Program-made: the position numbers and the translations under genes
Part shown: positions 29,499-46,465 of the stretch, one piece after another
Numbering within the stretch: position 1 is the first letter of the stretch
How the letters are laid out: the number at the start of each line of letters is the position of its first letter
The notes under the pieces: generated by a model
The model's database searches: none
Told to the model about the DNA's origin: nothing
The model's input: only the letters and a program-made list of their open reading frames with translations
NCBI GenBank assembly: GCA_963826785.1
Contig: CAWGYD010000006.1
Coordinates: 1 to 64,000 of the forward strand
Reading direction: 5' to 3'
Source of the DNA: an uncultured delta proteobacterium
Lineage (GTDB): Bacteria > Desulfobacterota > Desulfobacteria > Desulfobacterales > Desulfosalsimonadaceae
DNA length: 64,000 nucleotides

Positions 29499-31422
29499 AT
29501 GGCCACCAGGTACAAGGGATACATGGGCAGGGTGTTGGACATCAACCTTTCCACCGGCAGCATTGGCGAATACCCGCTGACCGACATCGACCGGGAAAAA
29601 TTTTTAGGCGGCCGGTTCATCAGCACCAAGATCCTGTGGGATGAGCTTTCACCCGGCGTCGACCCGCTCTCGCCGGAAAACATCCTGGTGGTCATGACCT
29701 CCCCCCTGACCGGCACCAACGCCCCCTCCACCAGCCGCTTCGACATCTCCGCCAAGAGCCCGCTGACCGGGGGCATCGGTCACTCCAACTCCGGCGGCAG
29801 CTTCGGCATCCATTTAAAGCGCGCCGGGTATGACGGCATGGTCATCCGGGGAAAAGCCGAAAAGCCGGTTTACATCGACATCGAAGAAGATGCGGTGCAG
29901 ATCAAACCCGCAGACCACCTGTGGGGCAAAAACACCGAAAAGACCCAGGAGGCAATGGAAAAGGCCGGCACGCTGGTCATCGGCCCGGCCGGGGAAAACA
30001 GGGTCAAGTACGCGGTGGTGGTGGCCGGCGAGCGGGTCCACGGCCGCACCGGCATGGGGGCGGTCATGGGATCCAAAAATTTAAAGGCCATCACCGCCTC
30101 GGGCAAGAAGAAGATTGAGCTGGACAAGCCGGAAAAATTCAAGTCCGGAGTGAAAAAATGGATCGACATGATCAAGCGCCACCCGGCCACCGGCGATTCC
30201 ACGCCCAGGCTCGGCACCGCCCAGTTCGTCAACATCCTGACCAAAGAAGAACGCCCTGCCCACCCGCAATTTCTCCCGGGGCTCCTTTGAAGGGGCGCAA
30301 AACATCAGCGGCGAGCGGCTGGCCGAAGATTTTCTGGTCAAAAACTCCGGGTGCACCTCCTGCCCCATCCGGTGCGGCCGGGTGGTGGAACTCGACGGAA
30401 AAGAGATCAAGGGTCCGGAATACGAGATGCTCTGCCTGATGGGATCGAACCTCGAAATCGACGACCTGCCCGCCATCATCCGGTGGAACTACGAACTCGA
30501 CCTTCTGGGGCTGGACACCATCACCACCGGCAACACCCTGGGGTTTGCCATGGAATTAAATGAAAAAGGGATCTGGAAAACCGACCTCGAGTTCGGCAAA
30601 AAGGAGAACATCTCCCAGACCATAGAAGACATCGCCTATCGCCGGGGAATCGGGGATGATCTGGCCGAAGGGGTGCGGTTTCTGTCGGAAAAATACGGGG
30701 GCAAGGAGTTTGCCGCCCACTCCAAGGGGCTGGAAATCGCCGGATACGAGCCCCGGGCCGCCGTCGGCCATGCCTTGGGGTATGCCACGGCCAACCGGGG
30801 GGCCTGCCACCTGGACGGCGGGTACATGATCTATTTCGAAGTCTCCGGCCCGCTCACCCTCAAACCGTCCCATTACCGATCCAAGCCCTCCTGGACCATC
30901 CTGGACCAGAACCTCATGGCCGCAGTCGGCGCCGGCGGCAACTGCCTGTTCACCGCCTGGACCTTTGTCCCCGGCTTCGCCTACAAGCTGCCCGGCATGA
31001 AATGGACGTCTAAAATCGTCACCGCCATGCTGACCTACACCTGGTTTCTGATCACCCTGACGCTCAAGATGCCGCCCATGCTGCTCAAATTCAACCTGCC
31101 GCTGCTGCCCCACCCCAAATTCATCCGGCTGGCCACCGGCATGAAGATGGACTTCGGCAGATACATGCGCGCCGGCGACCGGGGCTACAACCTGGAGCGC
31201 CTGTTCAACCTGCGAGAAGGCATCGGCAAAGAAAAGGACAGCCTGGCGTCGCGATTCACCGACGAGCCCCTGCTCCCGGGAAAACCCAAGTCCATCGTGC
31301 CTTTGGATAAAATGCTCCCAAAATACTACAAGATCCGCGGCTGGGACGAAAACGGTATCCCCCGGCAAAAAACGCTCAAGAAACTGGGGCTGGAGTTTGC
31401 GGATGAAAGACGGATGAACTGA
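29499..31422 (+). CDS. aor: Aldehyde:ferredoxin oxidoreductase (W/Mo-pterin AOR family), frameshift near 30244
   Basis: GYMGRVLDINLS, AKSPLTG, GAVMGSKNLKA, LPTRNF, CTSCPIRC, GPEYE, GLDTI and YYKIRGWD. Confidence 0.9.
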
Positions 31423-31442
31423 CAGGAATTGTTTTTCGTGAT

Positions 31443-31475
31443 GCCCTCAGGTGTTTGATCAAAATGCCTGAGGGC
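31443..31475 (+). terminator. Hairpin after the AOR gene
   Basis: GCCCTCAGG ... CCTGAGGGC stem; no U-tract. Confidence 0.4.
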
Positions 31476-31704
31476 GCATCCCCTCCTCCCTGCCGCCCCG
31501 GCATCATCTTGAATGCAAAATTAAATAAGGTCAGCTGCAATTCCGATTCCTATCTTTTCCGGACCCATATGGGCGTTGGACCTGATTGTCCCCTCCCGAC
31601 GACTTCTGTAGCTTAATCAAAGGCATACCGAGTTTTGAAACCCTGCGGCAGGTGAACACCGCCGCAGGGACGGATATATCTGAACCGCAAAGGAGGAAGA
31701 ACCG

Positions 31705-32226
31705 ATGCGCGAGCATATGGATCTGCCCGGCGGGGTCCCGGTGGAAAGGACCATCACCATCGACCGGCCGGTGCAGGAAATGTATCAGTTCTGGCGCAGG
31801 CTGGACAACCTGCCAAAGATTATGCAGCACCTGGAAAGTGTCGATGTTCTGGATGAAAAGCGCTCTCGCTGGAAAGCACAGGGGCCCATGAAATCATCTT
31901 TTGAATGGCATGCGGAGATCATCAGCGATGTGCCGGATCAGCACATCGAATGGAAATCCGTGGAAGACTCCGAAATAAAGACCGCGGGCGGTGTCTATTT
32001 CAGCCCGGCGCCCGGCGGACGGGGGACCCAAATCAAGGTGGCCCTCTCCTATGTGCCGCCCGGCGGCACCGCGGGGGCCAATCTGGCCTGGCTCATGGGC
32101 CAGGAGCCTTCCCAGCAGATCGCCGAAGACCTGCGCAAATTCAAACAGCTCATGGAAGCCGGGGAAGTCGCCACCATCGAGGGGCAGCCGTCAGGCGCTT
32201 CCCGCCCGGAAAAAAAGGAGGCATGA
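31705..32226 (+). CDS. SRPBCC (cyclase/dehydrase) family protein
   Basis: [10 protein letters not shown]...[17 protein letters not shown]...[14 protein letters not shown]. Confidence 0.88.
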
Positions 32227-32227
32227 T

Positions 32228-33402
32228 ATGAAAGCCGTATGCTGGTACGGAATAAACGATGTGCGGGTGGAGGAAGTGCCGGACCCGAAGATTCTCAACC
32301 CCAGAGACGCCGTCATCAAGGTGACCCTCACCGCCATCTGCGGATCGGATCTGCATCTTTACGACGGCTATGTGCCCACCATGGAAAAGGGCGACATCCT
32401 GGGGCATGAATTCATGGGCGAGGTGGTGGAAACCGGAAGTGAGATCAGGTCCCTCAAGCCCGGCGACCGCGTGGTGGTCCCCTTCCCCATCTCCTGCGGC
32501 CGGTGCTTCTACTGCAAGCAGGAACTCTGGTCCCTGTGCGACAATTCCAATCCCAATGCCTGGATGGCCGAAAAGCTCTACGGCTATTCCGGCGCGGCCC
32601 TGTTCGGCTATTCCCACATGCTGGGCGGATATGCCGGCGGGCAGGCCGAGTACGTGCGCGTCCCGTTTGCCGATGTGGGCCCCATCAAGATCCCCGAAGG
32701 CACACCGGACGACAAGGTGCTGTTCCTGTCGGACATTTTCCCCACCGGCTACCAGGCCGCGGAAAACTGCGGGATCAAGCCGGGCGATGTGGTGGCGGTA
32801 TGGGGCTGCGGCCCGGTGGGGCTGTTTGCCATCCGCAGCGCCTACATGCTGGGCGCCGAGCATGTCCTGGCCATCGACCGCGATCCCCGAGCGGCTGCGC
32901 CTGGCGCGAAGAGTTCGGCGGTGCGGAAACCATCAATTACGAAGAAACCGACGACGTCATCGAGACCCTGCGCCAGAAAACCGGCGGGCGCGGACCGGAT
33001 GCCTGCATCGATGCGGTGGGCATGGAATCCCACGGCACCGGGATGAGCTACTACTATGACAAGATTAAGCAGACCCTGCGGCTGGAAACCGACCGCCCCT
33101 ATGCCCTGCGGGAAGCCATCCAGTCCTGCCGCAAGGGGGGCACCCTGTCGGTCCCCGGCGTGTATGCGCTGTTTCTGGATAAATTTCCCTTCGGGTCCGC
33201 CTTTGCCAAGGGGCTGAATTTCAAGATGGGCCAGACCCATGTGCAGAAATATTTGCCCACGCTGTTGGGCCACATCCTGGAGGAGCGGATCGATCCGTCG
33301 GCCATCATCTCCCACCGCCTCCCCCTGGACCAGGCCCCTGAAGCGTACAAAAACTTTAAAAACAAGGAAGACCAGTTCATCAAGGTGGTGATGACGCCAT
33401 AA
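32228..33402 (+). CDS. Zn-dependent alcohol/formaldehyde dehydrogenase, indels near 32883-32910
   Basis: ICGSDLH, GHEFMG, CGRCFYC...C, LSDIFPTG and GCGPVG. Confidence 0.88.
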
Positions 33403-33428
33403 AAAATCATTTGCCTGGGCCCGCGCCC

Positions 33429-34249
33429 ATGCCGCTGTATACCGTCATCCGCCGGTTTGCCGCCGGCAGGATCATTCTGGAAAGCCGGCAATATCCGGTG
33501 GGCCCCAAACCGGATCCACGCCCTGGCGGCACCCGGGCCGCATGCACCGGATTCGATCCCCGTGGTCCTGGTGCACGGCCTGGGCGTCTCCGGCCGATAC
33601 ATGATCCCGCTGGCCGGGCAGCTCGGCGCCTGCCTCCCCACCTATGTCCCCGATCTGCCGGGGTTCGGCAAAAGCAGCCGGCCGGCCGCCACGCTTACCC
33701 TGGCCGAACTGGCCGACGCTCTGGCCGCCTGGATGGATGCGGCGGAAATGGATACGGCGGTGCTGCTGGGAAACTCGTTTGGCTGCCAGGTGATCGTCGA
33801 GCTGGCAATGCGCCGAGCCAAGGCGCGCCGCCGCCCTGGTCCTGCAGGCCCCCACCATGGATATCGATGCCCGCAATGCCGGGGGGCAGCTCCGGCGGTT
33901 CATCATGGACAGTTGGCGGGAGCCGCCCGCCCTGATTCCGGTGGTGGTCTCAGACTACCTGAAGGCGGGTCCCAGGCGCATCCTGGCCACTTTCCGGGCA
34001 GCCCTGGACGATCCCATCGAACGCAAGGTGCCCGGCATCGAGGTGCCCGCCCTGGTTATCCGGGGGGAATCCGACCCCATCGCCCCGGAGCGCTGGACCC
34101 GGGGACTATGCCGGCGCTTTCCCCAGGCCCGGCACGCGATCCTGCCCAAAGCGGCCCATGCCGCCGTCTTTTCCGCACCGGCGCCCTTCTCCCGTCTGGT
34201 CATTTGCTTCATCGCCCGCCACGTTTTCCAGGCGGTATCCGGCCCATAG
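33429..34249 (+). CDS. Alpha/beta hydrolase, indels near 33508 and 33820
   Basis: VLVHGLG, PDLPGFGKS, GNSFG nucleophile, GESDPI and AAH. Confidence 0.8.
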
Positions 34250-34484
34250 GAGATGGCCCAGCCCGCCTGGGCATGGGGCAACTTCCCCCGCCTGACCTCC
34301 CCCATAAAGAAAGAAGTATCTCCAGATCGGGGAAAATTGTTCAGCGGCGATATCCGATATAATGATTATATTTTAGGCATTGCCTTATTGGGCGATGATA
34401 TAAGGAGATATTCGGCGCCTGATAATTGAAAACGGCATCTGCGCGCCGGTTTGCGTCATTTTACATACATACAAGGAGGCGTCC

Positions 34485-35099
34485 ATGAAAATTTTGACCG
34501 TTTATTATTCGATGTACGGGCACATGCTTGAAATGGCCAAGGCCGTCCACGCGGGGGTTCAACGGGTCGACGGCGTTGAAGCGGTGCTGCGCCGGGTCCG
34601 GGAATTCGATGAAGTGAACAAAATCATCGACGGGAATGAATTTGCCGCAAAGATCCGGGAAAATCAGAAGGAAATCCCGGTGTGCACTTTAGACGACCTG
34701 CGGGAAGCCGAGGGGTACATCTTCGGCTCGCCCACGCGCTACGGCAACATGACCGCCCAGATGAAACAGCTGTTCGACAGCACGGCCGACCTGTGGAGCA
34801 AGGGCGAACTGGAGGGCAAACCCGCCGGCCTGTTTACGTCCACCGCCTCCACCCACGGGGGCCAGGAAACCACCCTGCTCACCATGATGCCGCCCCTGAT
34901 TCACCTGGGAATGATCATCGTGGGGGTGCCCTATTCCACCAGCGGCATGCTCCACACCGAGGCCAGGGGCGGCACGCCCTACGGGCCATCCACCATTGCC
35001 GGCCCGAAAGGCGAGCTGACGCCGCATGAAACCGACCTTCAGATCGCCTCGTTCCTGGGCGAACGGGTGGCCAACATCGCCAAACGCCTCCGGGGATAA
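34485..35099 (+). CDS. wrbA: NAD(P)H:quinone oxidoreductase WrbA
   Basis: YYSMYGH, GSPTRYGNMTAQMK, STASTHGGQETT and GGTPYG. Confidence 0.92.
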   Translation: MKILTVYYSMYGHMLEMAKAVHAGVQRVDGVEAVLRRVREFDEVNKIIDGNEFAAKIRENQKEIPVCTLDDLREAEGYIFGSPTRYGNMTAQMKQLFDSTADLWSKGELEGKPAGLFTSTASTHGGQETTLLTMMPPLIHLGMIIVGVPYSTSGMLHTEARGGTPYGPSTIAGPKGELTPHETDLQIASFLGERVANIAKRLRG

Positions 35100-35173
35100 A
35101 AGCGGCCGCGGCTTCCAGGGAACTTGACCCGGTAAAACGTTTTTCACCGTTTATTTTTTGATTTCGCAGGGTC

Positions 35174-35292
35174 CAACCCCCCCTGCCTTCCCTCGATGGG
35201 GGAATTTGAGACCTGCTCCCCCTCGAAGGGAGAATTCGGTCGCAATTTCAAGGCCTAATCCCCCCTTGAGGGGGGAATTAAAGGGGGGTGTT
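35174..35292. repeat. Type A palindromic element
   Basis: AACCCCCCCT...CCCTCGATGGG...CCCCTCGAAGGG...CCCCCCTTGAGGGGGGAATTAAAGGGGGGTGTT. Confidence 0.75.
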
Positions 35293-35449
35293 CCTTCCGG
35301 CTGCCGTGAAAAATTCATTCCGGCAAAAATACCGCCCTGCGGGGTCGAAAGCTTTCAAGAAAAGAACCTGCACCGGCACACAGGGGCGGCCCTGCGGGGG
35401 GGCACCGCCCAAAAGTCCCCTTTTGTCGAGAGTACCTTGGGGAGAAAAA

Positions 35450-35896
35450 ATGACCCGATCCACAACTGATGCACGCCATGCTTCAACGCTGCTGCTGATA
35501 GCTGTCCTTCTGGCCGCGCTTCTTCCGGGCTGCGGCCGGACATCGGAACCGGTGCTGCAGATCCCGGACTGGATCATCGGAACGTGGACCGGCGCCTTTG
35601 GATTCGAACACGAGCCGGTCGAATACGCGTTTGTCATGAAACTGGAAAAAAACGGAAAAGGCACCCTCACCCTGTCCGGTCGCGGGGCCAGTTTCAGGTT
35701 GACGATGGAATCGGCTTCACCCCGCCAGGTGCGGTATAAAATGACATCGGATGATCCGGATGCGGACGCCATCGTCTCGCCGGGGATTATGGACCTGATC
35801 CGTCTGCCGGAACAGCCGCAAGACGTCATCCATGTCCAGTTTTACCCGGCCGGAAAAGAAGAACTCTGGCTGGGCCGGGCCAGAAGAATGAAATAA
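35450..35896 (+). CDS. Putative lipoprotein
   Basis: RBS GGAG; hydrophobic signal ending in the lipobox LPGC. Confidence 0.65.
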   Translation: MTRSTTDARHASTLLLIAVLLAALLPGCGRTSEPVLQIPDWIIGTWTGAFGFEHEPVEYAFVMKLEKNGKGTLTLSGRGASFRLTMESASPRQVRYKMTSDDPDADAIVSPGIMDLIRLPEQPQDVIHVQFYPAGKEELWLGRARRMK

Positions 35897-35907
35897 CAGG
35901 CCGCTGT

Positions 35908-36504
35908 TCAGAGCCCCGGCACACCCGCGATCAAGCTTTTCAGCCGCTCGACCGGCTGCACGCCGGACAGCACCACCTTTTCGTCCATCACAAAGGCGGG
36001 CACCGCCCGCACATTGAACCTGGCCGCGTCCTGTACATCGGCAGCAACCGATTTTTCAAACAGCCGCCGCTCCAATGCGGCTTCCAGCGCGCTGCCGTCA
36101 AGGCCAAGGTCGGCCGCCAGCCGGACCAGGACATCGATTTCGCCGATATTTTCCCCGCGCTCGAAAAAGGCGCGGAAAACCGCCGCGTGATAAGTCTCGA
36201 ATGCGCCCTGTTCCCGGGCCCAGTGGGCCGCCTCGTGTGCCTGCCGGGACCGGGGCTGCACCGGCGGCAGGTTCATGGTGACATTCAGCCGCTGTGCCAG
36301 CGGCTTTACCGAATCCCTCCAGGCGTTCTGAATGTACGCGGAATTCGGGTCCAGAACCGGCACGGGCTCCGGCCGCAGCTCAAATGCCCGCCACCGGAAT
36401 TCCACATCCGGGTTTTCGGATTTAACGATTTCCATGGCCGGCTCCGCCAGCCAGCAGAACGGTCAAAGATAATCGGAAAAGACCTGTATCACCAGATTGC
36501 TCAT
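35908..36504 (-). CDS. DsbA/FrnE-family thioredoxin-fold selenoprotein (UxxC)
   Basis: AAGGAG RBS, ATG 36504, MSNLVIQVFSDYL-TGA-PFCWLAEP in frame with the 175-aa ORF; FELRP and AVPAF cis-Pro loop. Confidence 0.88.
36430..36459 (-). promoter_or_regulatory. Bacterial SECIS-like hairpin
   Basis: UUCUG(C)UGGCUGGC-GGA-GCCGGCCAUGGAA; the loop begins with G, 17 nt after the UGA at 36465-36463. Confidence 0.75.
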
Positions 36505-36507
36505 TTT

Positions 36508-37221
36508 TCACTCCTTGCAGCAGCAGCTGATTTCCTTCATTCGCTTGAGTATTAAACCTGCGCGAGCCTGGCTTGCCGGGTCCGGAGGCAGGTGGCCCGG
36601 CAGAGCTTCAAAAAAAGAACGATTTTTCAATAAAGAAATAATGCGCCCTTTGAGATAAGCATTCAACTTAGAATCCGATGCATTTACTTCTTCAACGATT
36701 TCCGGTCTGCCATCGAGTACGGCAACAATATCTTCCATGTCCCGGCTCATCAGGTAATCGGCATTCCCCCTGCCATCGAAGGCTTCCAACTTCGTCGCCA
36801 GAAAATAAGGCGCTGGCAATATCCGGATTTCGGTGCCATCTGAAAGGCAAATCCATTTAGATGCCGCAAATGCCGGACCATACCATTGATTTCCGAAACC
36901 AAGTATCTGAGAATCTACCGGCATAACATCCAGTATAATAATTTCTCTAATCCATCTGCATATCGGCGCTCCAGGGCTCAAATCTTCTTTAAATCCCCGG
37001 TCACGTAATGTTTCCGACAGCTTGTGATATGCGGCCAAAGATGAAACTTCAACTAAAACATCGACATCAATTGTTGGTCGAACCGGGGCGGCTGCGGGAT
37101 CTGTTATGAGCAGACCGGTTGCGCAACCGCCGAGAAAGACCATTTCATTTTTCATAGCGCCCAAAAAGGAAGCGGCTTTTTCCAGCAGAATGATATTGGG
37201 ATGCCGGCTCGACTTCATCAT
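36508..37221 (-). CDS. Nucleotidyltransferase, AbiEii-like toxin candidate
   Basis: VFLGGCA...RPTIDVD, LATKLEAFDGR and SRDMEDI. Confidence 0.7.
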   Translation of the reverse strand: MMKSSRHPNIILLEKAASFLGAMKNEMVFLGGCATGLLITDPAAAPVRPTIDVDVLVEVSSLAAYHKLSETLRDRGFKEDLSPGAPICRWIREIIILDVMPVDSQILGFGNQWYGPAFAASKWICLSDGTEIRILPAPYFLATKLEAFDGRGNADYLMSRDMEDIVAVLDGRPEIVEEVNASDSKLNAYLKGRIISLLKNRSFFEALPGHLPPDPASQARAGLILKRMKEISCCCKE

Positions 37222-37730
37222 TCAAGCTTTCTCCTGATTTCATGAACAGCCATTTCTTTTTCTCTTGCCCGGCCTCCCCTAATGGCATCGACCAGTGATA
37301 AAAGCGCATACAACTCCTGATCCTTCCGCGCCGCTTTCGGGACGGATTTGTACAGCGGTGAAAAAGCCGTACCCCTTGTTTCCCCCATTGGATCCGGCCA
37401 GATCGGGCAAGGCTCATCGGATGAAAGAAGAATGCCATTCAATGGCGGCACATTATAGATGGTGGGCATTCCACGGGTCATTTCGCCGCGTTCAGGAACA
37501 AAGACATACTTTAACCCATGACAAAGGAATTCTTTTAAAGCGCTTTTATTAACAGTGATATTCTCCTTAATCGAGGTCAGTAAATGTGCAGTAATGGAGC
37601 GTTTAACGGCTGCATGCACTTCCGAAGAACTCATCGAAAGATCCACCGCCAATTCATTATACGTCCATTGCGCCTGCTCCAGAGTAACAAGCTTCAGGAC
37701 CACCAAAACATCCTGCGGTTTTAATATCAT
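37218..37730 (-). CDS. wHTH-containing protein, AbiEi-like antitoxin candidate
   Basis: WTYNELAVDLSMSSSEVHAAVKR HTH; C-terminal LVDAIRGGRARE; 4-nt overlap with the NTase gene. Confidence 0.65.
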   Translation of the reverse strand: MILKPQDVLVVLKLVTLEQAQWTYNELAVDLSMSSSEVHAAVKRSITAHLLTSIKENITVNKSALKEFLCHGLKYVFVPERGEMTRGMPTIYNVPPLNGILLSSDEPCPIWPDPMGETRGTAFSPLYKSVPKAARKDQELYALLSLVDAIRGGRAREKEMAVHEIRRKLE

Positions 37731-37741
37731 GATGATTACCC

Positions 37742-37776
37742 CTATTCTCTATTCGCGATTCGCAAATAGAGAATAG
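37742..37776. promoter_or_regulatory. Long inverted-repeat operator upstream of the wHTH-NTase pair
   Basis: CTATTCTCTATTCGCGA-T-TCGCAAATAGAGAATAG, 17-bp arms with one mismatch. Confidence 0.7.
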
Positions 37777-37890
37777 ATAATTCAAAGGGCTTTTTCAACA
37801 GTTTTTTAGTTAACCGCATCTTCTTTGCGGCAACGCACTGTTAAAAAACGTATCCTTGATTTGCCATTCTTTTTATTCTACTAAATTTCT

Positions 37891-38295
37891 ATGCATCATA
37901 TTCACGTCACCTGTGCAATTCTTGAGCACGGCGGTCGCGTTATGGCAGCCCAAAGGAGTGCTTCAATGAAGATGCCTTTCAAATGGGAGTTTCCCGGTGG
38001 AAAGATCAATCCCGGTGAAAGCCCTGAAGCCTGCCTTCAACGGGAACTTCTGGAAGAACTGGCTTTGACCGTATACATTAAGTTAGCGCTTCCGCCGACT
38101 ACACACGATTATCCGAATATGCGCGTGACCCTCTATCCCTATGTCTGTGCCATCCAGGAAGGCGAGCCGAAGCTGAACGAACATGCCGCACTAAAATGGC
38201 TTTCGCCGAAAGCGCTTGGCACGCTTGATTGGGCCGAGGCCGATCTACCCGTTATTGACGCCTATCGGCACTGGCTGGAAAAGTCATCGCAATGA
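37891..38295 (+). CDS. NUDIX hydrolase (MutT-like)
   Basis: WEFPGGKINPGESPEACLQRELLEEL Nudix box; WAEAD. Confidence 0.9.
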   Translation: MHHIHVTCAILEHGGRVMAAQRSASMKMPFKWEFPGGKINPGESPEACLQRELLEELALTVYIKLALPPTTHDYPNMRVTLYPYVCAIQEGEPKLNEHAALKWLSPKALGTLDWAEADLPVIDAYRHWLEKSSQ

Positions 38296-41200
38296 CTTCC
38301 AAACTCCCCTTTGGCATCTATGATGCGCTGATCGACCGGAATCTGAGGGAAACCCTTGCGCAATATCCAGATCTGAGGGCAGTGCTGGGGAAAATTGATA
38401 CTGAGGAGCAACCGGCGCGGTATGCGGATTTCATTTCCAGAATCGTGGAGCAGGTCCTGCGCGAAGAATCCGACCCGGAAAAGCGGCTTGCGTTATGCAA
38501 CACGATTCTTGAGCACATATCAATAGATTTTGGCCATGAGGATGGAAAGAACCATCTGGTTTCCGGCAAAAAATCCCTGCTTTTGGAAATAATGCCGCCG
38601 CATTATGGTGCTGCGGGGCTTCCCCGCCCCCATACGCCTATATCAGAAAGCAGTCTCTTCACCGGATCACCGCGCGACCCCCAGCTTGTTCATGAACTGC
38701 AGGCTGAAATGCGCTCCGCCGACGCAGTAGACATTCTGGTTTCTTTTATCAAGTGGTCCGGCCTGCGCCTGTTGATGCCGGCTTTTGAAGACCTGAAGGA
38801 CCGGGATGTGCCGGTGCGGGTGATCACAACTTCGTACATGGGGGCATCCGATGCCCCAGCAATTGAATGGATAGCGGGCATGCCCAATGTGAACGTGCGG
38901 GTCTCCTATGATACAGAGAGAACCCGGCTTCACGCCAAAGCCTATCATTTCAAGCGCTTCTCTGGCTATTCTACCGCGTACATCGGTTCCGCAAACATGT
39001 CCCAGGCCGCCATGACGAGCGGCCTCGAGTGGAATCTGAAGGTTACCGAGCAGGACATGCTGCACATTCTTGAAAAGTTCGCGGCAGAATTCGAGACCTA
39101 TTGGAACAGCCGCGAGTTTGTCCCTTTTGATCCGTGTAATCCTGCTCCGCTGCGCAATGCGATCAGTCACGCCCGAAATCCGCAGGCACAGCAAATGGTA
39201 TTTTTCGACCTGCGGCCCCATCCCTTCCAGGAGCGGATCCTCGAAGCCCTGGAACGGGAGCGCAGCATTCGGCAAAACCATCGCAACCTGGTCATTGCAG
39301 CAACCGGCACGGGCAAAACCGTGATTGCCGCTTTCGATTACCATCACTTTTATGAACGCAAACAACGCCAGGCGCGATTGCTCTTTGTAGCCCATCGGCT
39401 GGAAATCCTGCAGCAGGCGCTGGGAACCTTTCGAAATGTCTTGCGGGACGCCAATTTCGGGGAACTGCTTGCCGGCACCCATTCGGCGGATCGGTACGAC
39501 CACCTGTTTTGTTCGGTGGGAATGCTTACCAACCGGCGCCTGTGGGAACAGGTAGGGCGAAACTTTTACGATTACATCGTCATCGATGAGGCGCATCATG
39601 GCACGGCAGCCAGCTACCGACCGATCTTCGAAAAATTCGATCCGGAAGTGCTGCTTGGTCTGACAGCCACCCCGGAGCGGATGGACGGCGGCAATGTGCT
39701 CGCGGATTTCGGCAACCGATTTGCCGCTGAAATCCGGCTGCCCGAAGCGCTGGAAGAAAAACTGCTCTGCCCGTTTCACTATTTCGGAGTGGCAGACCCG
39801 ATATCTCTGAAAGAAGACCGATTCTGGACGAACGGCAAGTATAACATCACAGAACTTGAAAATATCTATACCGGCGCCCACATGCTGGCCCGCCAGCGCC
39901 TCGACCTTATTCTCGACGCCCTCAAAAGATATGAGCCCGAGTGGGATCTGATTAAGGGAGTCGGCTTCTGCGTTTCCATTAATCATGCGAAATTCATGGC
40001 AGAGATGTTTACCCATCGTGGATTGGCATCGGCTGCATTCGTGTCCGGCATAAACGGAGACGACTGTGCCGCCCTCTTGAAAGATCTTAAATTCGGGCGA
40101 TTGAAGTTCCTGTTTACGGTGGATAAATTCAGCGAAGGCATCGACCTGCCGGCAATCAATGTTGTCCTGTTTTTGCGGCCGACCGAAAGCCTCACCGTAT
40201 TTCTCCAGCAGCTGGGTCGCGGGCTCCGGTTTGCACCGGGAAAAGACTGCCTCACGGTCCTCGACTTTGTTGGCCAGGCCCACCGGAAATACCGCATCGA
40301 TACCAAGCTAAAGGCGCTGCTGCCCAAACACCGCTTTTCCATCGACCGGGAGGTCGAAATGGATTTCCCCCATCTGCCCGCGGGATGCGCCATCCAGTTC
40401 GACCGGCTCTCCCGGCGGCACGTGCTTGAAAATATCCGGGAAAACCTGCGAAATCTGGCGCTGCAGGTACCCGAACGCATCCAGACATTTGAAAATGAAG
40501 CCCACCAGGAACTGACCTTCGGCAATTTTATCCGGCACCACGATTACGAACCCGAGCGACTCCTGGTCAAAGAAACATGGACCGGCTGGAAGGCAAAGGC
40601 GCAGCTAACTGCCCCGCCAAAAGACCCGGACCTGCAAAGGCTGAAAAAGGCCCTCGTCCGGTTCGCCTTCATTAACGGGCCACAGGAAATCGCGCTGCTG
40701 CAGCAAATTATCTCGCGGATACGGCAGGGGGCCATTGCCGATGCCATGGCCCTTGCCGGAGATACTGGAATTTTGGTGCACTTCCGGATCTGGGCGGACA
40801 AGGGGGAAAATTTGGGGATGACTTCACTTGCAGATTCCTTCCGGCGTCTTTCCCGAAATTCGTCGATCCTTGATGACATGGAAGAAATCCTGGCATGGGC
40901 GGAATCAGGAACGCCGGTGAGCGGATTGGTCCCCGATCTGCCGTTTTCGTGCCCGCTTGAGCTGCACGCGCAGTATGGATATACCGACATTCAGGCTGTG
41001 CTGGGGATGGCCAACCTTGACACGGCAGGGCAACGGGGCGTCGGAATTGTGCATCTCTCTGATCTCAAGGCCTATGCCCTCATGATCACTTTCCAGAAAA
41101 CCGAGCGGGAGTTTTCGCCCTCCACCATGTACGCCGACTACCCCATCAGCCGCGAACTCCTGCACTGGGAATCCCAGTCAAACACCACCCAGACATCCCC

Positions 41201-41417
41201 GACCGGGCAAAATTTGATTTACCATGACGAGCGAGGGTACACCATCCTTCTCTTTGCCCGCGGACAGAAAAACCAGAACGGCTGTACCGTCCCCTTCACC
41301 TATCTCGGCCCGGCCGACCGAGTGAGTTTTGAAAGCGAACGCCCCATCAAGATGATTTGGCGTTTACAATATTCGATGCCAGTGGAAATGTTTGAAGAGA
41401 ACCGAAAAGGAGGGTAG
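38292..41417 (+). CDS. PLD nuclease-SF2 helicase-DUF3427 protein (SauUSI-like type IV restriction enzyme candidate)
   Basis: LHAKAY...YIGSANMS...EWN (PLD); ATGTGKT, DEAHH, LTATPER, QQLGRGLR (helicase); C-terminal YADYPISRELLHWESQS. Confidence 0.85.
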   Translation: MTSKLPFGIYDALIDRNLRETLAQYPDLRAVLGKIDTEEQPARYADFISRIVEQVLREESDPEKRLALCNTILEHISIDFGHEDGKNHLVSGKKSLLLEIMPPHYGAAGLPRPHTPISESSLFTGSPRDPQLVHELQAEMRSADAVDILVSFIKWSGLRLLMPAFEDLKDRDVPVRVITTSYMGASDAPAIEWIAGMPNVNVRVSYDTERTRLHAKAYHFKRFSGYSTAYIGSANMSQAAMTSGLEWNLKVTEQDMLHILEKFAAEFETYWNSREFVPFDPCNPAPLRNAISHARNPQAQQMVFFDLRPHPFQERILEALERERSIRQNHRNLVIAATGTGKTVIAAFDYHHFYERKQRQARLLFVAHRLEILQQALGTFRNVLRDANFGELLAGTHSADRYDHLFCSVGMLTNRRLWEQVGRNFYDYIVIDEAHHGTAASYRPIFEKFDPEVLLGLTATPERMDGGNVLADFGNRFAAEIRLPEALEEKLLCPFHYFGVADPISLKEDRFWTNGKYNITELENIYTGAHMLARQRLDLILDALKRYEPEWDLIKGVGFCVSINHAKFMAEMFTHRGLASAAFVSGINGDDCAALLKDLKFGRLKFLFTVDKFSEGIDLPAINVVLFLRPTESLTVFLQQLGRGLRFAPGKDCLTVLDFVGQAHRKYRIDTKLKALLPKHRFSIDREVEMDFPHLPAGCAIQFDRLSRRHVLENIRENLRNLALQVPERIQTFENEAHQELTFGNFIRHHDYEPERLLVKETWTGWKAKAQLTAPPKDPDLQRLKKALVRFAFINGPQEIALLQQIISRIRQGAIADAMALAGDTGILVHFRIWADKGENLGMTSLADSFRRLSRNSSILDDMEEILAWAESGTPVSGLVPDLPFSCPLELHAQYGYTDIQAVLGMANLDTAGQRGVGIVHLSDLKAYALMITFQKTEREFSPSTMYADYPISRELLHWESQSNTTQTSPTGQNLIYHDERGYTILLFARGQKNQNGCTVPFTYLGPADRVSFESERPIKMIWRLQYSMPVEMFEENRKGG

Positions 41418-41434
41418 ATATTTCGGAGTCAGAC

Positions 41435-43325
41435 ATGAAAATTCTTAAATTAACGGTTTGGTCGCTGATCGGGCTGTCGGTTTTCGCTGTGGCAGTGTAT
41501 CTCCTGCTGCCCCGGGGGCCGAGAGATCCCATGGCGTTTGATGATCCGCACCAGGTGCCGCGGGCGTCTGTTTCGGCCAAAAAGTATATGGCGGCGACCG
41601 GCACCCCCTGGGCCACGCGGGCCGCGATTGACATCCTGGACGAGGGCGGCAACGCGTTCGATGCCGGCATGGCGGCCCTGCTGGCGCTGAATGTGACGTA
41701 CCCGGAGGCGGCCAGCTTCCCTTCGATTGCGCCGACCCTCATCTATGATGCAGAGACGGACGAGATCTGGAGCTACTGCGGGGTGGGAACGGCGCCGGCA
41801 AAGGCGACCATCGATTACTTCACCGCCAAAGGGTACGAGACCATCCCCGAGATGGGCATCCTTGCGCAGCTGATCCCTTCCTCTCCGGACGCCATTATCG
41901 CTGTTTTAGACAAGTACGGGACCATGAGCTTTACAGAGATCAGCGCAGAAGCGGTTCGGCTGGCAAAAGAAGGTTTTCCGCTCCATGAGATGACGGTCGA
42001 GCACCTGGATCTCAACATCATCGAGCGCATCTGGTATTCTTATGCGATGCCCTACAATTCCGAAGTCTACCTGAAGGGCCAATGGTGGCGGCCATTATAC
42101 CACAAGGACCGCTTCCGCCAGCCCGACCTGGCCCGGACGCTCAAGGCCATGGCCGATGCGGAGCAGAAGGTGCTCACGGCCGGGGGAAGCCGCTCCGATG
42201 GGCTGAAGGCGGTGCGCGATTACTTCTACCGGGGGCCGGTGGCCGACGCCATCGTGAAACTGCATGAAGAGCAAGACGGATTGATCACGCGCAAGGACCT
42301 GGCCGATTACACGGGTTACTGGGAGCAGCCGCTTGCGGGCCGGTTCGGCGACTACACGATTTATGCGAATCGCACCTGGTGCCAGGGCGCGGTGGTCCCC
42401 ATGGCCCTGCAGATCCTGGAGGGGTGCGATGTGGGATCGATGGACCGGGAGTCTCCCGAATATATTCACACGGTGATCCAGGCCTTAGAGCTGGCCATGG
42501 CCGACCGGGAGGCATTTTTCGGCGATCCCGAATTTGTGGATGTTCCGGTCAAAGGGCTTCTCGAGCAGGGAATACGCGGACCTGCGGCGCAGGGCCATGA
42601 CGCCGGGCCGGGCATTCGGGAAGATGCCGCCGCCCGGCGACCCCTCGACATTTGATGTGGATGGAACTCCGGCGGTGGCTGATCCCGGGGGGCGGCCCGA
42701 TGCGCGGCCCGGCCGGCAGCATGCATACAGACCCATGGGGGAAATCGACACCAGCTACCTGGCGGTGACCGATCAATACGGGAATTCCATATCGCTTACG
42801 CCCAGCGACTTTCCCCTGTCGCCCATGGTGCCGGGAACGGGCCTGTGCCTGGGCATACGGATGACGCAGTTCCGGCTCGATCCCGCTCATCCGGCCGCCC
42901 TGGCGCCGGGGAAGCGGCCGCGGGTCACGCCCAACGCCAGCATGGTCACCAGGGACGGCCATCTCTTCATGACCTTCGGGACCCCCGAGGGGGACCAGCA
43001 GCCCCAGGCCCTGGTCCAGGTCTTTCTCAACCGGGTGGTTTTCGGCATGGACATCCAGGACGCCATCGACGCGCCGCGGTTCCGTTCGCACAATTTCCCG
43101 GATTCCTTTTCGCCCCACGAATACACGCCGGGGGTGGTCGAGCTGGAACAGGGGCTCTATGACAAGGTCGGCAGGGCGCTGGAACAGATGGGGTACACCG
43201 TCAAGGTGGTTGAGGACTGGCACTATGAAATGGGCGCCGTCTGCGCGATCATCCGGGACCCGGAGACGGGCCAACTCATCGGCGGCGCTGATCCGCGGCA
43301 GGAGAACTGGGCAGAGGGGCGTTAA
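41435..43325 (+). CDS. Gamma-glutamyltransferase family protein with an N-terminal membrane anchor, frameshift near 42563
   Basis: GGNAFDA, LAMADRE...GDP, DTSYLAV (Thr nucleophile), PGKRPR, GTPEGD and GGADPR. Confidence 0.88.
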
Positions 43326-43485
43326 ACTTTTAAAATTTCCTGAGTGATCCGGATTATTTCGGCAGGAATTAATGTGAGATGGAAATTTCGATATCTTCGA
43401 CAGGCCAGGCTGCATATCGAGGTGAATTTAATTTAATAAATCCTGATTCTATTGTCGCCATTTCCACTATTTCGTTAACCAGCTA

Positions 43486-43860
43486 TCAGTTACCTGCCAG
43501 ATCTTCGATGATACTTCTTTTGTTCGCTTGGACCTTCATATGCCTTTCGCATACAATAAAAATGGCCTCTTCATTAATGTCAAAATAGTGATGACTGATG
43601 ATGTCGCGTAAGGCCTTGGCCTTTGTCCAATCAACTTCAGGATAGTTTGGCAATAGCCTTTTGTCAGTTACCTTGTCGAGGTTTTTCAGCCCCTCTCCGA
43701 TGGCAATCAGTTGCATGCAAATGGCATCCAATTTTACCAGACCGGCTTCGGATCCGGTGAAATCATCCGGAGATTGGATCGATTCAAAGCGGCGCAAAAC
43801 GGTCTTTGATGATTCAAGGATTTGCGATAATATCTCAATCGCCAATTCCCGATCATACAT
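43486..43860 (-). CDS. HepT-like (DUF86) RNase toxin
   Basis: RDIISHHY matches RX4HXY. Confidence 0.88.
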   Translation of the reverse strand: MYDRELAIEILSQILESSKTVLRRFESIQSPDDFTGSEAGLVKLDAICMQLIAIGEGLKNLDKVTDKRLLPNYPEVDWTKAKALRDIISHHYFDINEEAIFIVCERHMKVQANKRSIIEDLAGN

Positions 43861-44143
43861 AGACCGCCTCTTGGTCGATTTTTCTACGAAGGAAAGGGTT
43901 CATTTTGCTTCTATAGCTGACAATATCCACATGGCGGTTAAGCCTGTATTCGAGCTCTTGTTTAATCCCAATCAAATTGAATAAGTCCTGGTCATCAAGG
44001 ACGACAACAACATCCACATCACTTTCGCGATCCATCCTGTTTCTGGCACAAGAGCCGAAAATACCAATTTTTCGGATGTAATACTTCTCTTTTGCCTGAT
44101 CGTAAAATTCATTGATTACGGCGAGAACATCCTGTTTGTTCAT
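43853..44143 (-). CDS. MNT antitoxin
   Basis: GIFGSCARNRMDRESDVDVVV. Confidence 0.88.
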   Translation of the reverse strand: MNKQDVLAVINEFYDQAKEKYYIRKIGIFGSCARNRMDRESDVDVVVVLDDQDLFNLIGIKQELEYRLNRHVDIVSYRSKMNPFLRRKIDQEAVYV

Positions 44144-44354
44144 GGCTCGAAGTCCCACACACAAATAAAGTCCAAAATTAAAAGCTTTGTCGGTTTGGGA
44201 GTAATTTATCGTTATTTCTATAAATTGTCAACTGCCGGGCATGGTCAGCTCGTGAACGTCACGCCAGGATAAACCATGGGCTTTTAGCTGGTTTCCTCCA
44301 GGGGCCGAGGCGATGAGCCATTTTTCTGCATAATTTGTAAATTGAAGTTACAAA

Positions 44355-44759
44355 TTATCCGTGAACGCTTGCTGGCGCAATGCGTCAGTTTCTGTTTTGA
44401 AACCGTTTTTTCGCCCCCTTCGAAGATCGATTTCATTGCAGCGGCCAAAGGACTGGGGTATACGGTGGTTCTCGTCTGCATCCACCTGAACACCCCCGGC
44501 CTGAACGAGGCCCGCGTTTCTCAGCGGGTTTCCGAGGAAGGGCACAGCGTCCCCATCGAAAAAATCCACACCCGCCTTCCCCGCACCCTGAAGCGCATTT
44601 CAACCGCTCTTCCGCTGGCCGATGATGCCAGGCTCCTGAACAACTCCTTCCGGGATGATCCTTTCCGGCTGGTGGCCATCGTGAAGAAAGGCAGGCGCAA
44701 ATGGACTTGCGACCGTCCTGCCGGATTGGGCCGGGCAGATAATGGAAGGCATTCCATGA
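44355..44759 (+). pseudogene. C-terminal remnant of a zeta-toxin-like P-loop ATPase
   Basis: SFCFETVFS...AKGLGY...RVSQRVSEEGHSVP...LPDWA; no Walker A segment and no credible start. Confidence 0.7.
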
Positions 44760-44883
44760 TGGGGCGGGTTTTGCCTTTTCAGGGACTGGAGATTTCCCCC
44801 AGGAATTTTAAAAAGTTCCATTGAAAAAAGGAGAAAAGGTATATACGTTTGATTATTAAATTAATTTTAGAGAGGGCCAACCA

Positions 44884-45093
44884 ATGACACGAGAATTTAA
44901 TGTTGTAATTGAAAAAGATGAAGATGGATATTTCATCGCTTCAGTTCCTGCGCTTCGAGGATGCCACACGCAGGCAAAATCACTGGATGTTCTGATGAAA
45001 AGGATTAAAGAAGCCATTGAACTGTGTGTCGAAGTTGAGGAACCTGTTTTAAATGAGTTTGTCGGTGTTCAGCGGGTAGCGATCAGCGCATGA
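44884..45093 (+). CDS. hicB: HicB-family antitoxin (short form)
   Basis: FNVVIEKDEDGYFIASVPALRGCHTQAKSLD...IKEAIEL. Confidence 0.9.
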   Translation: MTREFNVVIEKDEDGYFIASVPALRGCHTQAKSLDVLMKRIKEAIELCVEVEEPVLNEFVGVQRVAISA

Positions 45094-45314
45094 CATCATT
45101 TCCATCTATTAAAGGAACTGCTTTAATCAAGGCCATTCAAAAAGCAGGATTTGAAGTAATCCGCACCAAAGGGAGTCATCGTTTTCTTAAACACCCGGAC
45201 GGGCGTTGTACTGTCGTTCCAGTTCATCGGGGTGAGCCTATCGGAAGAGGGCTCCTTGCCCAGATTCTTCGAGATTGCGAGATTTCAAGAAAAGATCTCC
45301 AAGATTTGCTTTAA
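45090..45314 (+). CDS. hicA: HicA-family toxin
   Basis: GFEVIRTKGSHRFLKHPDGRCTVVPVH. Confidence 0.9.
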   Translation: MTSFPSIKGTALIKAIQKAGFEVIRTKGSHRFLKHPDGRCTVVPVHRGEPIGRGLLAQILRDCEISRKDLQDLL

Positions 45315-45355
45315 GCTAAATCGATCTACTCGACTCCAAAGACTGTCCGACCGTC

Positions 45356-46465
45356 TCAGGCTTTCTTGTATAGACCCCTTTCCGGGGTGACGATCCTGCC
45401 CGATTTTCTCAGTTGAAAGATGATGTTGCGGAGCCGGGTTTCCGCAATCCCGGTTTTTTTCAGCAAGGCCGGGAAGCCGATCCCTTTGCGGCTTTTGCCG
45501 ATCACCGCTTCCACCCGGCCGCTGTCGCCGGCAAACGATAAAACCTGTTTTACTGCATCTGTTTTTGCGCCGGACGCTTCGGCGGTTTTAGGCGTTTTTT
45601 TCCTTCCTGCTTCCCGGGCCTGCTTTTTTCTTCCGGCAGGCTTTGCCCTTTCAGGGGGCTGCACTTCCCCTTTTTTCACCGTCTTCTTTCGGCGCGGTTT
45701 TTCCGGTGTGGCTGCCGCTTTCCCATAGGGCGCAACCGGTTCGTCCAGTTCGATGCCGAAGATATCGGAAAGATTTCCCTCGTTGATGACCCGGGCGCTT
45801 TTCCGGCCGGCCTTTCCCAGCAGCTGGCGGGTTTTGTCTTCGACGGCATGGGAGATCAATTCGTTTACATCCGCGTTTCGCAGGGTGAAAAAGAGCATGG
45901 GGTCATGGTCCAGGCGCGCGCCGATGCCATAGAGGGCGGCGGCCACGTGCTTGCACATGGAGGCCCAGTCCGGGCAGGAGCAGGAAAATTTAATCTCATT
46001 GGGCGTGGGGAACAGCCCTTTGCCGCTGGCCATGAAGATTTCGCCCAAAGACTTTGGGAATTTGCCTTCCAGAAGCTCCGGCAGGGAGCCGAAGGTCCCC
46101 TGGCAGGCATTTTTGATCTGCCGCCAGTTTGCTATTTTAATGGGCTCGATCTGCACGGAAACTGAATAGGGCTTTGCCCGGGTCCCCTGGACCAGGGCGG
46201 TGACTGCACCGGAGGCGATCTGAAGGTCGAGCACCATGCCGTTGCACACATAGCTGCGGCCCCGCCCGATGCGGTTGCTGTAGTCGGCGTACCGTTCCAG
46301 GTTGGTGTTCCAGGACTTGCCCCACCAGGTCCGGGCGATGGTGCGCCCCTCCACCACCACGGGGGCGATGTTCGGGTTCTTTTTCATGAGCTGTTCCAGC
46401 TTTTTTGCCGCCTTGGCCTTTTTCTCCGCCACGCTCACGTAGGGCGGATATTCCCAGTACGCCAT
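45356..46465 (-). CDS. SWIM zinc-finger protein with a Lys-rich linker and putative C-terminal wHTH
   Basis: CSCPDWASMCKHVAA; NRIGRGRSY. Confidence 0.88.
   Translation of the reverse strand: MAYWEYPPYVSVAEKKAKAAKKLEQLMKKNPNIAPVVVEGRTIARTWWGKSWNTNLERYADYSNRIGRGRSYVCNGMVLDLQIASGAVTALVQGTRAKPYSVSVQIEPIKIANWRQIKNACQGTFGSLPELLEGKFPKSLGEIFMASGKGLFPTPNEIKFSCSCPDWASMCKHVAAALYGIGARLDHDPMLFFTLRNADVNELISHAVEDKTRQLLGKAGRKSARVINEGNLSDIFGIELDEPVAPYGKAAATPEKPRRKKTVKKGEVQPPERAKPAGRKKQAREAGRKKTPKTAEASGAKTDAVKQVLSFAGDSGRVEAVIGKSRKGIGFPALLKKTGIAETRLRNIIFQLRKSGRIVTPERGLYKKA

Follow-up and report, generated by a model that had tools for sequence, protein, structure and literature searches.

A probable selenocysteine-containing DsbA/FrnE-family protein encoded by an uncultured Desulfobacterales bacterium

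The window, by which we mean the whole 64,000-nucleotide stretch of DNA analyzed here, carries on its minus strand a DsbA/FrnE-family gene whose active site has been lost from the database annotation. Taken as a whole, it is very likely that the gene encodes a DsbA/FrnE-fold protein in which residue 14 is almost certainly selenocysteine (U-P-F-C) and which probably works as a cytoplasmic disulfide reductase. That the gene is a selenoprotein gene in origin is close to certain, and the decoding of its UGA as selenocysteine in the host organism, where we infer Sec insertion, is highly probable. As judged from aligned sequences, the decisive evidence is conservation, both of the TGA at this site and, in the hairpin that follows it, of synonymous positions that are frozen in stem and loop alike. 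The initial annotation had proposed a DsbA/FrnE selenoprotein with a UxxC motif and a SECIS element. This proposal is now supported by the match to PF01323, the conservation of the TGA, the selection on the hairpin, the co-occurrence with selA and selB, and the tRNA-Sec and TGA-bearing MvhD genes of the host's own genome.

The TGA codon and the hairpin that follows it

Read from the ATG at 36504 (-), the frame gives MSNLVIQVFSDYL-TGA-PFCWLAEPAM and continues to the terminal TGA at 35910-35908 (Table 1). With codon 14 read as U, the protein matched PF01323 in a Pfam profile search with 128.1 bits (cut-off 25.6) over residues 6-192. In the alignment with homologues, the TGA sits where DxxCPFC has its first Cys. 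The initial annotation had given a ribosome-binding site followed by the ATG and the UGA, and had placed the UGA at the first Cys of DxxCPxC; its coordinates were all right when the sequence was read again, and Cys-containing homologues agree with the placement. The AAGGAG motif overlaps the end of the coding sequence of PDC-M21B, the gene upstream. Codons 1-13, which are conserved among relatives, encode the D-Y motif as well as strand beta-1, and an ATG stands 13 codons ahead of the Sec site in 61 of 94 near-clade loci. Cys17, the sole Cys of the protein, is kept in 66/66 TGA representatives. Val168-Pro169 is predicted to be the cis-Pro site typical of the family.

Table 1. Coordinates of the gene and of its parts in the window
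Feature	Position	Strand	Basis and remarks
DsbA/FrnE-family selenoprotein CDS (PF01323)	35908..36504	(-)	198 aa + stop; profile match, fold, alignment
Shine-Dalgarno-like AAGGAG	36511..36516	(-)	sequence; six bases before ATG 36504
In-frame TGA, codon 14, predicted selenocysteine U14 of U-P-F-C	36463..36465	(-)	sequence and homologue alignment
Predicted bacterial SECIS	36430..36459	(-)	upper stem 36453-36446 with 36442-36435; GGA loop 36445-36443; variable lower stem
Cys17 (TGC), predicted resolving cysteine	36454..36456	(-)	sequence and TGA representatives
Internal ATG (Met24), false start of gene callers	36433..36435	(-)	ORF track and database protein
Val168-Pro169, predicted cis-proline loop of thioredoxin fold	35998..36003	(-)	invariant in alignment; aligned to VP of D. 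radiodurans FrnE
Terminator-like hairpin and U-rich tail just past stop	35854..35885	(-)	consensus scan only; 7 such sites found versus 4.5 expected

The TGA is common to many relatives. Confirmed metagenome loci numbered 344; in the best 80 of them (56-69% identity), codon 14 was TGA in 76, TAA in one and TGC in three. The site was covered in 14 of the 18 GTDB loci, with ten TGA and four Cys, and 60 genomes of order- and family-level relatives yielded 19 places, of which 14 have TGA, three have Cys and two lack coverage of the site. Most DsbA/FrnE homologues across the host phylum carry TGA as well (L008-L025, L162-L190). Both selA and selB scored above cut-off in 10/10 TGA-bearing named GTDB genomes (9/9 without G069, which is unpublished); the four Cys-bearing named genomes are divided, two having both genes and the other two not. 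In one region (L100:2540), a TAA stands at the Sec codon and the hairpin is intact. The near-identical loci L117, L129, and L131 have TGC at the site and keep most of the hairpin, and their TGC is likely a recent reversion. In two Vicinamibacterales loci (L048 and L051), the site is Cys and the hairpin is absent, even though both selA and selB occur in their genomes.

The hairpin, UGGCUGGC-GGA-GCCGGCCA, has an 8-bp upper stem and a 3-nt GGA loop that begins 17 nt past the UGA; its lower stem (5 bp, two G-U pairs) is variable among relatives. The folding energy is -16.6 kcal/mol, with z about -1.9 against dinucleotide shuffles (7/200 as good). The initial annotation had described a hairpin with a lower stem and a G-initiated loop 17 nt from the UGA, which folds as it said, and had found it to fit the bacterial SECIS model. 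As given in PMC13188914, this model has a loop of 3-9 nt and an upper stem of 4-16 bp (Fig. 2 legend), with a G in the first two loop positions, a distance of 16-37 nt from the UGA, and an energy of -7.5 kcal/mol or lower. The hairpin lies within all four constraints (3-nt loop, 8 bp, 17 nt, -16.6 kcal/mol), so the earlier claim stands, and the fit by itself is weak evidence. Our own implementation of the published model is lenient: it passed 84/300 random Cys codons, 36/200 true TGA stops, and 236/400 synonymous re-samplings of the same 20 codons. The generic model was therefore rejected as proof. Only 5/400 re-samplings produced a hairpin of this particular kind, with at least 7 bp and a G loop at 17 nt. 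An Rfam search of positions 30000-46000 gave no match.

More can be learned from the relatives. Of the 76 TGA metagenome loci, 66 are predicted to have the GGA loop at the same distance of 17 nt. For a test of synonymous sites, 94 near-clade loci were reduced to 70 representatives with less than 90% nucleotide identity, 66 of them with TGA. Among these 66, which are kin and whose third-base counts are not independent, Leu19 ends in G in 65/66, Ala20 is GCG (loop G) in 63/65, Glu21 is GAG in 63/65, Ala23 is GCC in 59/61, and Pro22 ends in a purine in 62/65. Synonymous positions in the stem and loop are 97-98% fixed. In comparison, the frequency of the commonest third base has a mean of 0.54 and a maximum of 0.88 at 59 other conserved Leu/Ala/Pro/Gly/Val/Arg/Ser columns, and a mean of 0.66 and a maximum of 0.79 at 21 two-fold columns. 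The hairpin codons are lost in three of the four Cys representatives; the fourth, L117, keeps most of them. The alignment thus indicates selection on the hairpin over and above that on the protein sequence. A covariation test found no compensatory double changes in the hairpin, and pairing (94.6%) was not above that of column shuffles (493/500 as high); this test has little room because the stem lies in conserved codons.

Fold and probable function

The closest solved relative is the FrnE of D. radiodurans (DrFrnE; DR_0659; PDB 5CNW, 5COH, 5CP1), both by sequence (E 8.5e-21, 27-28% identity) and by fold (TM 0.83-0.89 for an AlphaFold model with U read as C, pLDDT 90). The two proteins have in common the DsbA fold, the cytoplasmic type, and a CP(W/F)C-type site; the protein studied here differs in having Sec for the first Cys, in its length (198 residues versus 260 in the solved DrFrnE chain), and in the absence of the C-terminal CxxxxC tail found in DrFrnE. 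PMC8945050 assigns DrFrnE to cd03024 and describes it as a cytoplasmic disulfide reductase that acts as an isomerase as well and for which TrxR/NADPH can supply the reducing power. According to the same paper, the CxxxxC tail recycles DrFrnE and occurs in many but not all FrnE proteins, being absent in those of S. roseofulvus and D. maricopensis (PMC8945050). In the protein studied here, no signal peptide could be read from the sequence, strand beta-1 starts at residue 4, and U-P-F-C occupies residues 14-17. No NCBIfam model scored above its cut-off, and the Rcas_1661 selenolipoprotein model reached 40 of 190 bits.

In bacteria, SelB bound to the SECIS loop delivers Sec-tRNA to the UGA. Here, translation would start at the ATG at 36504, and SelB is predicted to bind the GGA-loop hairpin, with Sec-tRNA delivered to the UGA. 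By analogy with DrFrnE, the U14 selenolate would attack a substrate disulfide, and Cys17 would resolve the mixed bond to give a U14-C17 selenenylsulfide. Because the CxxxxC tail is absent, we propose that an outside reductant, likely thioredoxin reductase with NADPH, may regenerate the U14-C17 selenenylsulfide; a thioredoxin reductase gene is present in the host assembly at C6:933774.

A role of the cytoplasmic disulfide reductase type is the one we favor, with reasonable though limited confidence. The selenoprotein could instead be a disulfide isomerase or chaperone, or a small-thiol enzyme similar to kappa GST and HCCA isomerase. DrFrnE has isomerase activity besides its reductase activity (PMC8945050), the fold neighbors of the model include kappa GST, HCCA isomerase, YjbH, and DsbM, and the regenerating tail is missing. 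However, DrFrnE is the top match in both sequence and fold and has the same CP(W/F)C motif, Cys17 is invariant, and gshB was not found in the incomplete host assembly, which makes the alternative roles unlikely, if worth keeping in mind.

The surroundings of the gene offer no conserved neighborhood pointing to a substrate among the 94 loci; one other locus shares a neighbor family (WrbA). In the window, a WrbA-type NAD(P)H:quinone oxidoreductase gene lies 800 bases downstream (34485-35099, +), and L118 also has a WrbA-like gene nearby. Directly upstream and co-oriented are PDC-M21A (170 aa) and PDC-M21B (237 aa) at 37730-36508 (-), a candidate defense pair of PADLOC with 47% GC versus 62% and no Pfam or NCBIfam match. 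The stop of PDC-M21B is a TGA in frame, one codon before the ATG at 36504 and after C-C-C-K-E. A read-through fusion with PDC-M21B was considered and rejected, as the RNA after this TGA has no fitting hairpin and a folding energy of just -5.0 kcal/mol, and the match to the PADLOC profile extends to residue 234 of 237. A Nudix gene (PADLOC PDC-S07) overlaps the gene of a 1041-aa PLD-helicase-DUF3427 type IV methyl-directed restriction enzyme (37891-41417, +), a pair that resembles SauUSI with its Nudix partner. PDC-M21A/B, the Nudix gene, and the restriction enzyme are chance neighbors.

Selenium machinery of the host and other readings of the TGA

The host assembly is 87.8% complete and consists of 11 contigs. 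The initial annotation had named selA, selB, selC, and selD as the genes to look for, and the outcome is mixed. The tRNA-Sec gene (selC) is intact at C2:46605-46702, with a TCA anticodon and a long variable arm. selA is present at C3:45209-46665 with a frameshift near residue 188, and both halves score well. selB and selD were not found in the 87.8%-complete assembly by HMM search or by relaxed tblastn with the proteins of relatives, the latter returning only EF-Tu-type and noise matches. Four of the 11 MvhD matches in the assembly contain a TGA, and each of these four, when checked, has it at a Cys position together with a G-loop hairpin.

This picture raises the possibility that the gene is a relic, that is, a former selenoprotein gene in a host that is losing Sec decoding, where the UGA has become a stop and the gene is silent. 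selA and yedF (C5:322976-323589) are both frameshifted, which for two selenium genes is somewhat more than the background predicts (of 88 control genes chosen from relatives, 4 have a frameshift in the assembly), and selB and selD are missing. However, selB is present in 46 and selD in 45 of 47 near-complete relatives, and the regions that hold them in family relatives are almost without orthologue in the host assembly: purM, tsaD, mltG, gmk, pdxA, and uvrA are missing with them, and the absence of gmk and tsaD was confirmed by HMM search. Because these housekeeping neighbors are missing too, gaps in the assembly are indicated, and indel errors seem to be common in it because yedF and 4/88 controls are frameshifted. 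The absence of selB and selD and the frameshift of selA are likely due to such gaps and errors. In addition, the host assembly retains an intact tRNA-Sec, intact MvhD genes with TGA, and this gene, likewise intact, together with its SECIS. We therefore regard a relic as improbable and decoding as Sec as the preferred reading. A LysR-type regulator is divergent from yedF, and selD does not adjoin yedF, unlike in three order-level relatives. In the ORF list of the window, three genes, named from reading their sequences, are seemingly split across frames: one like aldehyde:ferredoxin oxidoreductase (29499-31422), one like zinc-dehydrogenase (31991-33402), and one like gamma-glutamyltransferase (41435-43325), a pattern that agrees with an assembly containing indel errors.

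The public database protein P0002 (175 aa) begins at 36435 without the active site, as the initial annotation had remarked of the ORF track. If this product from Met24 were real, the TGA would be a true stop or a private nonsense mutation, which a single change from TGC could produce. Besides P0002, 80 similar shortened proteins are found in databases, so that 81 of the 120 best database proteins begin just after the Sec site (one being this gene's own product); W stands at the site in five of the 120 and C in 34, although a database C without DNA is indistinguishable from U and such rows were not counted as Cys forms. Several observations speak against a real Met24 product. The 13 codons ahead of the TGA, needed for beta-1 and the D-Y motif, are conserved, as is the distance to the ATG; of the 77 metagenome loci with a stop at the site, 76 have TGA; the hairpin is under selection; and Met24 is not conserved. 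The comparative data refute this reading as far as sequences can do so. Gene callers cut off the active site because the in-frame TGA is taken as a stop. The finding is mostly an annotation correction, which moves the gene start to 36504 with U14 and is likewise needed for the 81/120 best database matches. An alternative code in which TGA is read as Trp or another residue can be dismissed, since W in five database relatives reflects their gene calling, the TCA-anticodon tRNA with its long variable arm is called tRNA-Sec, TGA also serves as the stop of ordinary genes, this one among them, Cys stands at the site in homologues, and TGA is found together with selA and selB.

Origin of the gene and its place in the family

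DsbA-like selenoproteins (COG2761, UxxC) were described in 2005 from nine Sargasso Sea sequences (PMC1088965) and in 2006 from four genomes, including Deltaproteobacteria and Clostridia (PMC1794560), and the initial annotation was right that they are already known. In a 2026 inventory (PMC13188914), Table 1 lists "DsbA-like protein form 1" with UxxC, and such families are said to be largely uncharacterized. By its description there, form 1 shares with the protein studied here PF01323, UxxC, and a coding-region SECIS, with no difference in kind. The same table gives "DsbA-like protein form 2" as PF01323 with DxxUP, which D-Y-L-U-P also fits; the invariant resolving Cys (UxxC) is the motif given for form 1. 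The gene is an ordinary member of the selenoprotein family described in 2005, a family known by prediction. In the mainly open-access literature, we found no biochemical study of a Sec-containing member, and in mainly open-access main texts Acidobacteria are scarcely named with DsbA selenoproteins, although supplements may list acidobacterial members. The close natural U and C forms, some keeping the hairpin and others lacking it, would make a convenient set for studying what Sec adds to an FrnE-type enzyme.

The relationships of the gene were analyzed with an unrooted tree of 43 rows, made by careful search with the Sec site masked. The gene falls in a clade with support of 100/100 that contains Acidobacteriota, Betaproteobacteria, and metagenome sequences, where its neighbors are L065 and L067/L070; L070 has a stretch of 80 residues in common with two proteins labeled Desulfobacterales by NCBI. 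A clade with the copies of family relatives was rejected (p-AU 6.8e-11, for a group named after a quick tree had been seen). Among 400 genomes of the host phylum, 112 have a homologue, mostly with TGA, and none scores above 130 bits, versus 328 for this gene. At least three other TGA clades exist in the phylum (DYI-U-PWC, DYI-U-PFC, and DYV-U-PYC), with different downstream sequences; compared with the DYI-U-PWC and DYI-U-PFC copies, this copy lies in a separate clade with its own fixed hairpin. Many DYI-U-PWC copies fail the SECIS test, yet a GGG/GUG some 21 nt past the UGA is conserved in them. The placement in an Acidobacteria-rich clade and the low scores within the phylum suggest horizontal movement of the gene, as far as a tree of this kind can indicate.

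A further proposal is tentative, and we put it no higher than a conjecture with a fair share of doubt. The gene might belong to a separate and widespread Sec FrnE lineage (DY[LV]-U-PFCWLAEPA), common in Acidobacteriota and present also in Betaproteobacteria and a few Desulfobacterales, which would have gained Sec and a WLAEPA-coded SECIS independently of the Desulfobacterota lineages, moved by horizontal transfer as a single gene, and gone back to Cys on several occasions. If the proposal is true, this lineage would be an unrecognized common selenoprotein of soil Acidobacteria.
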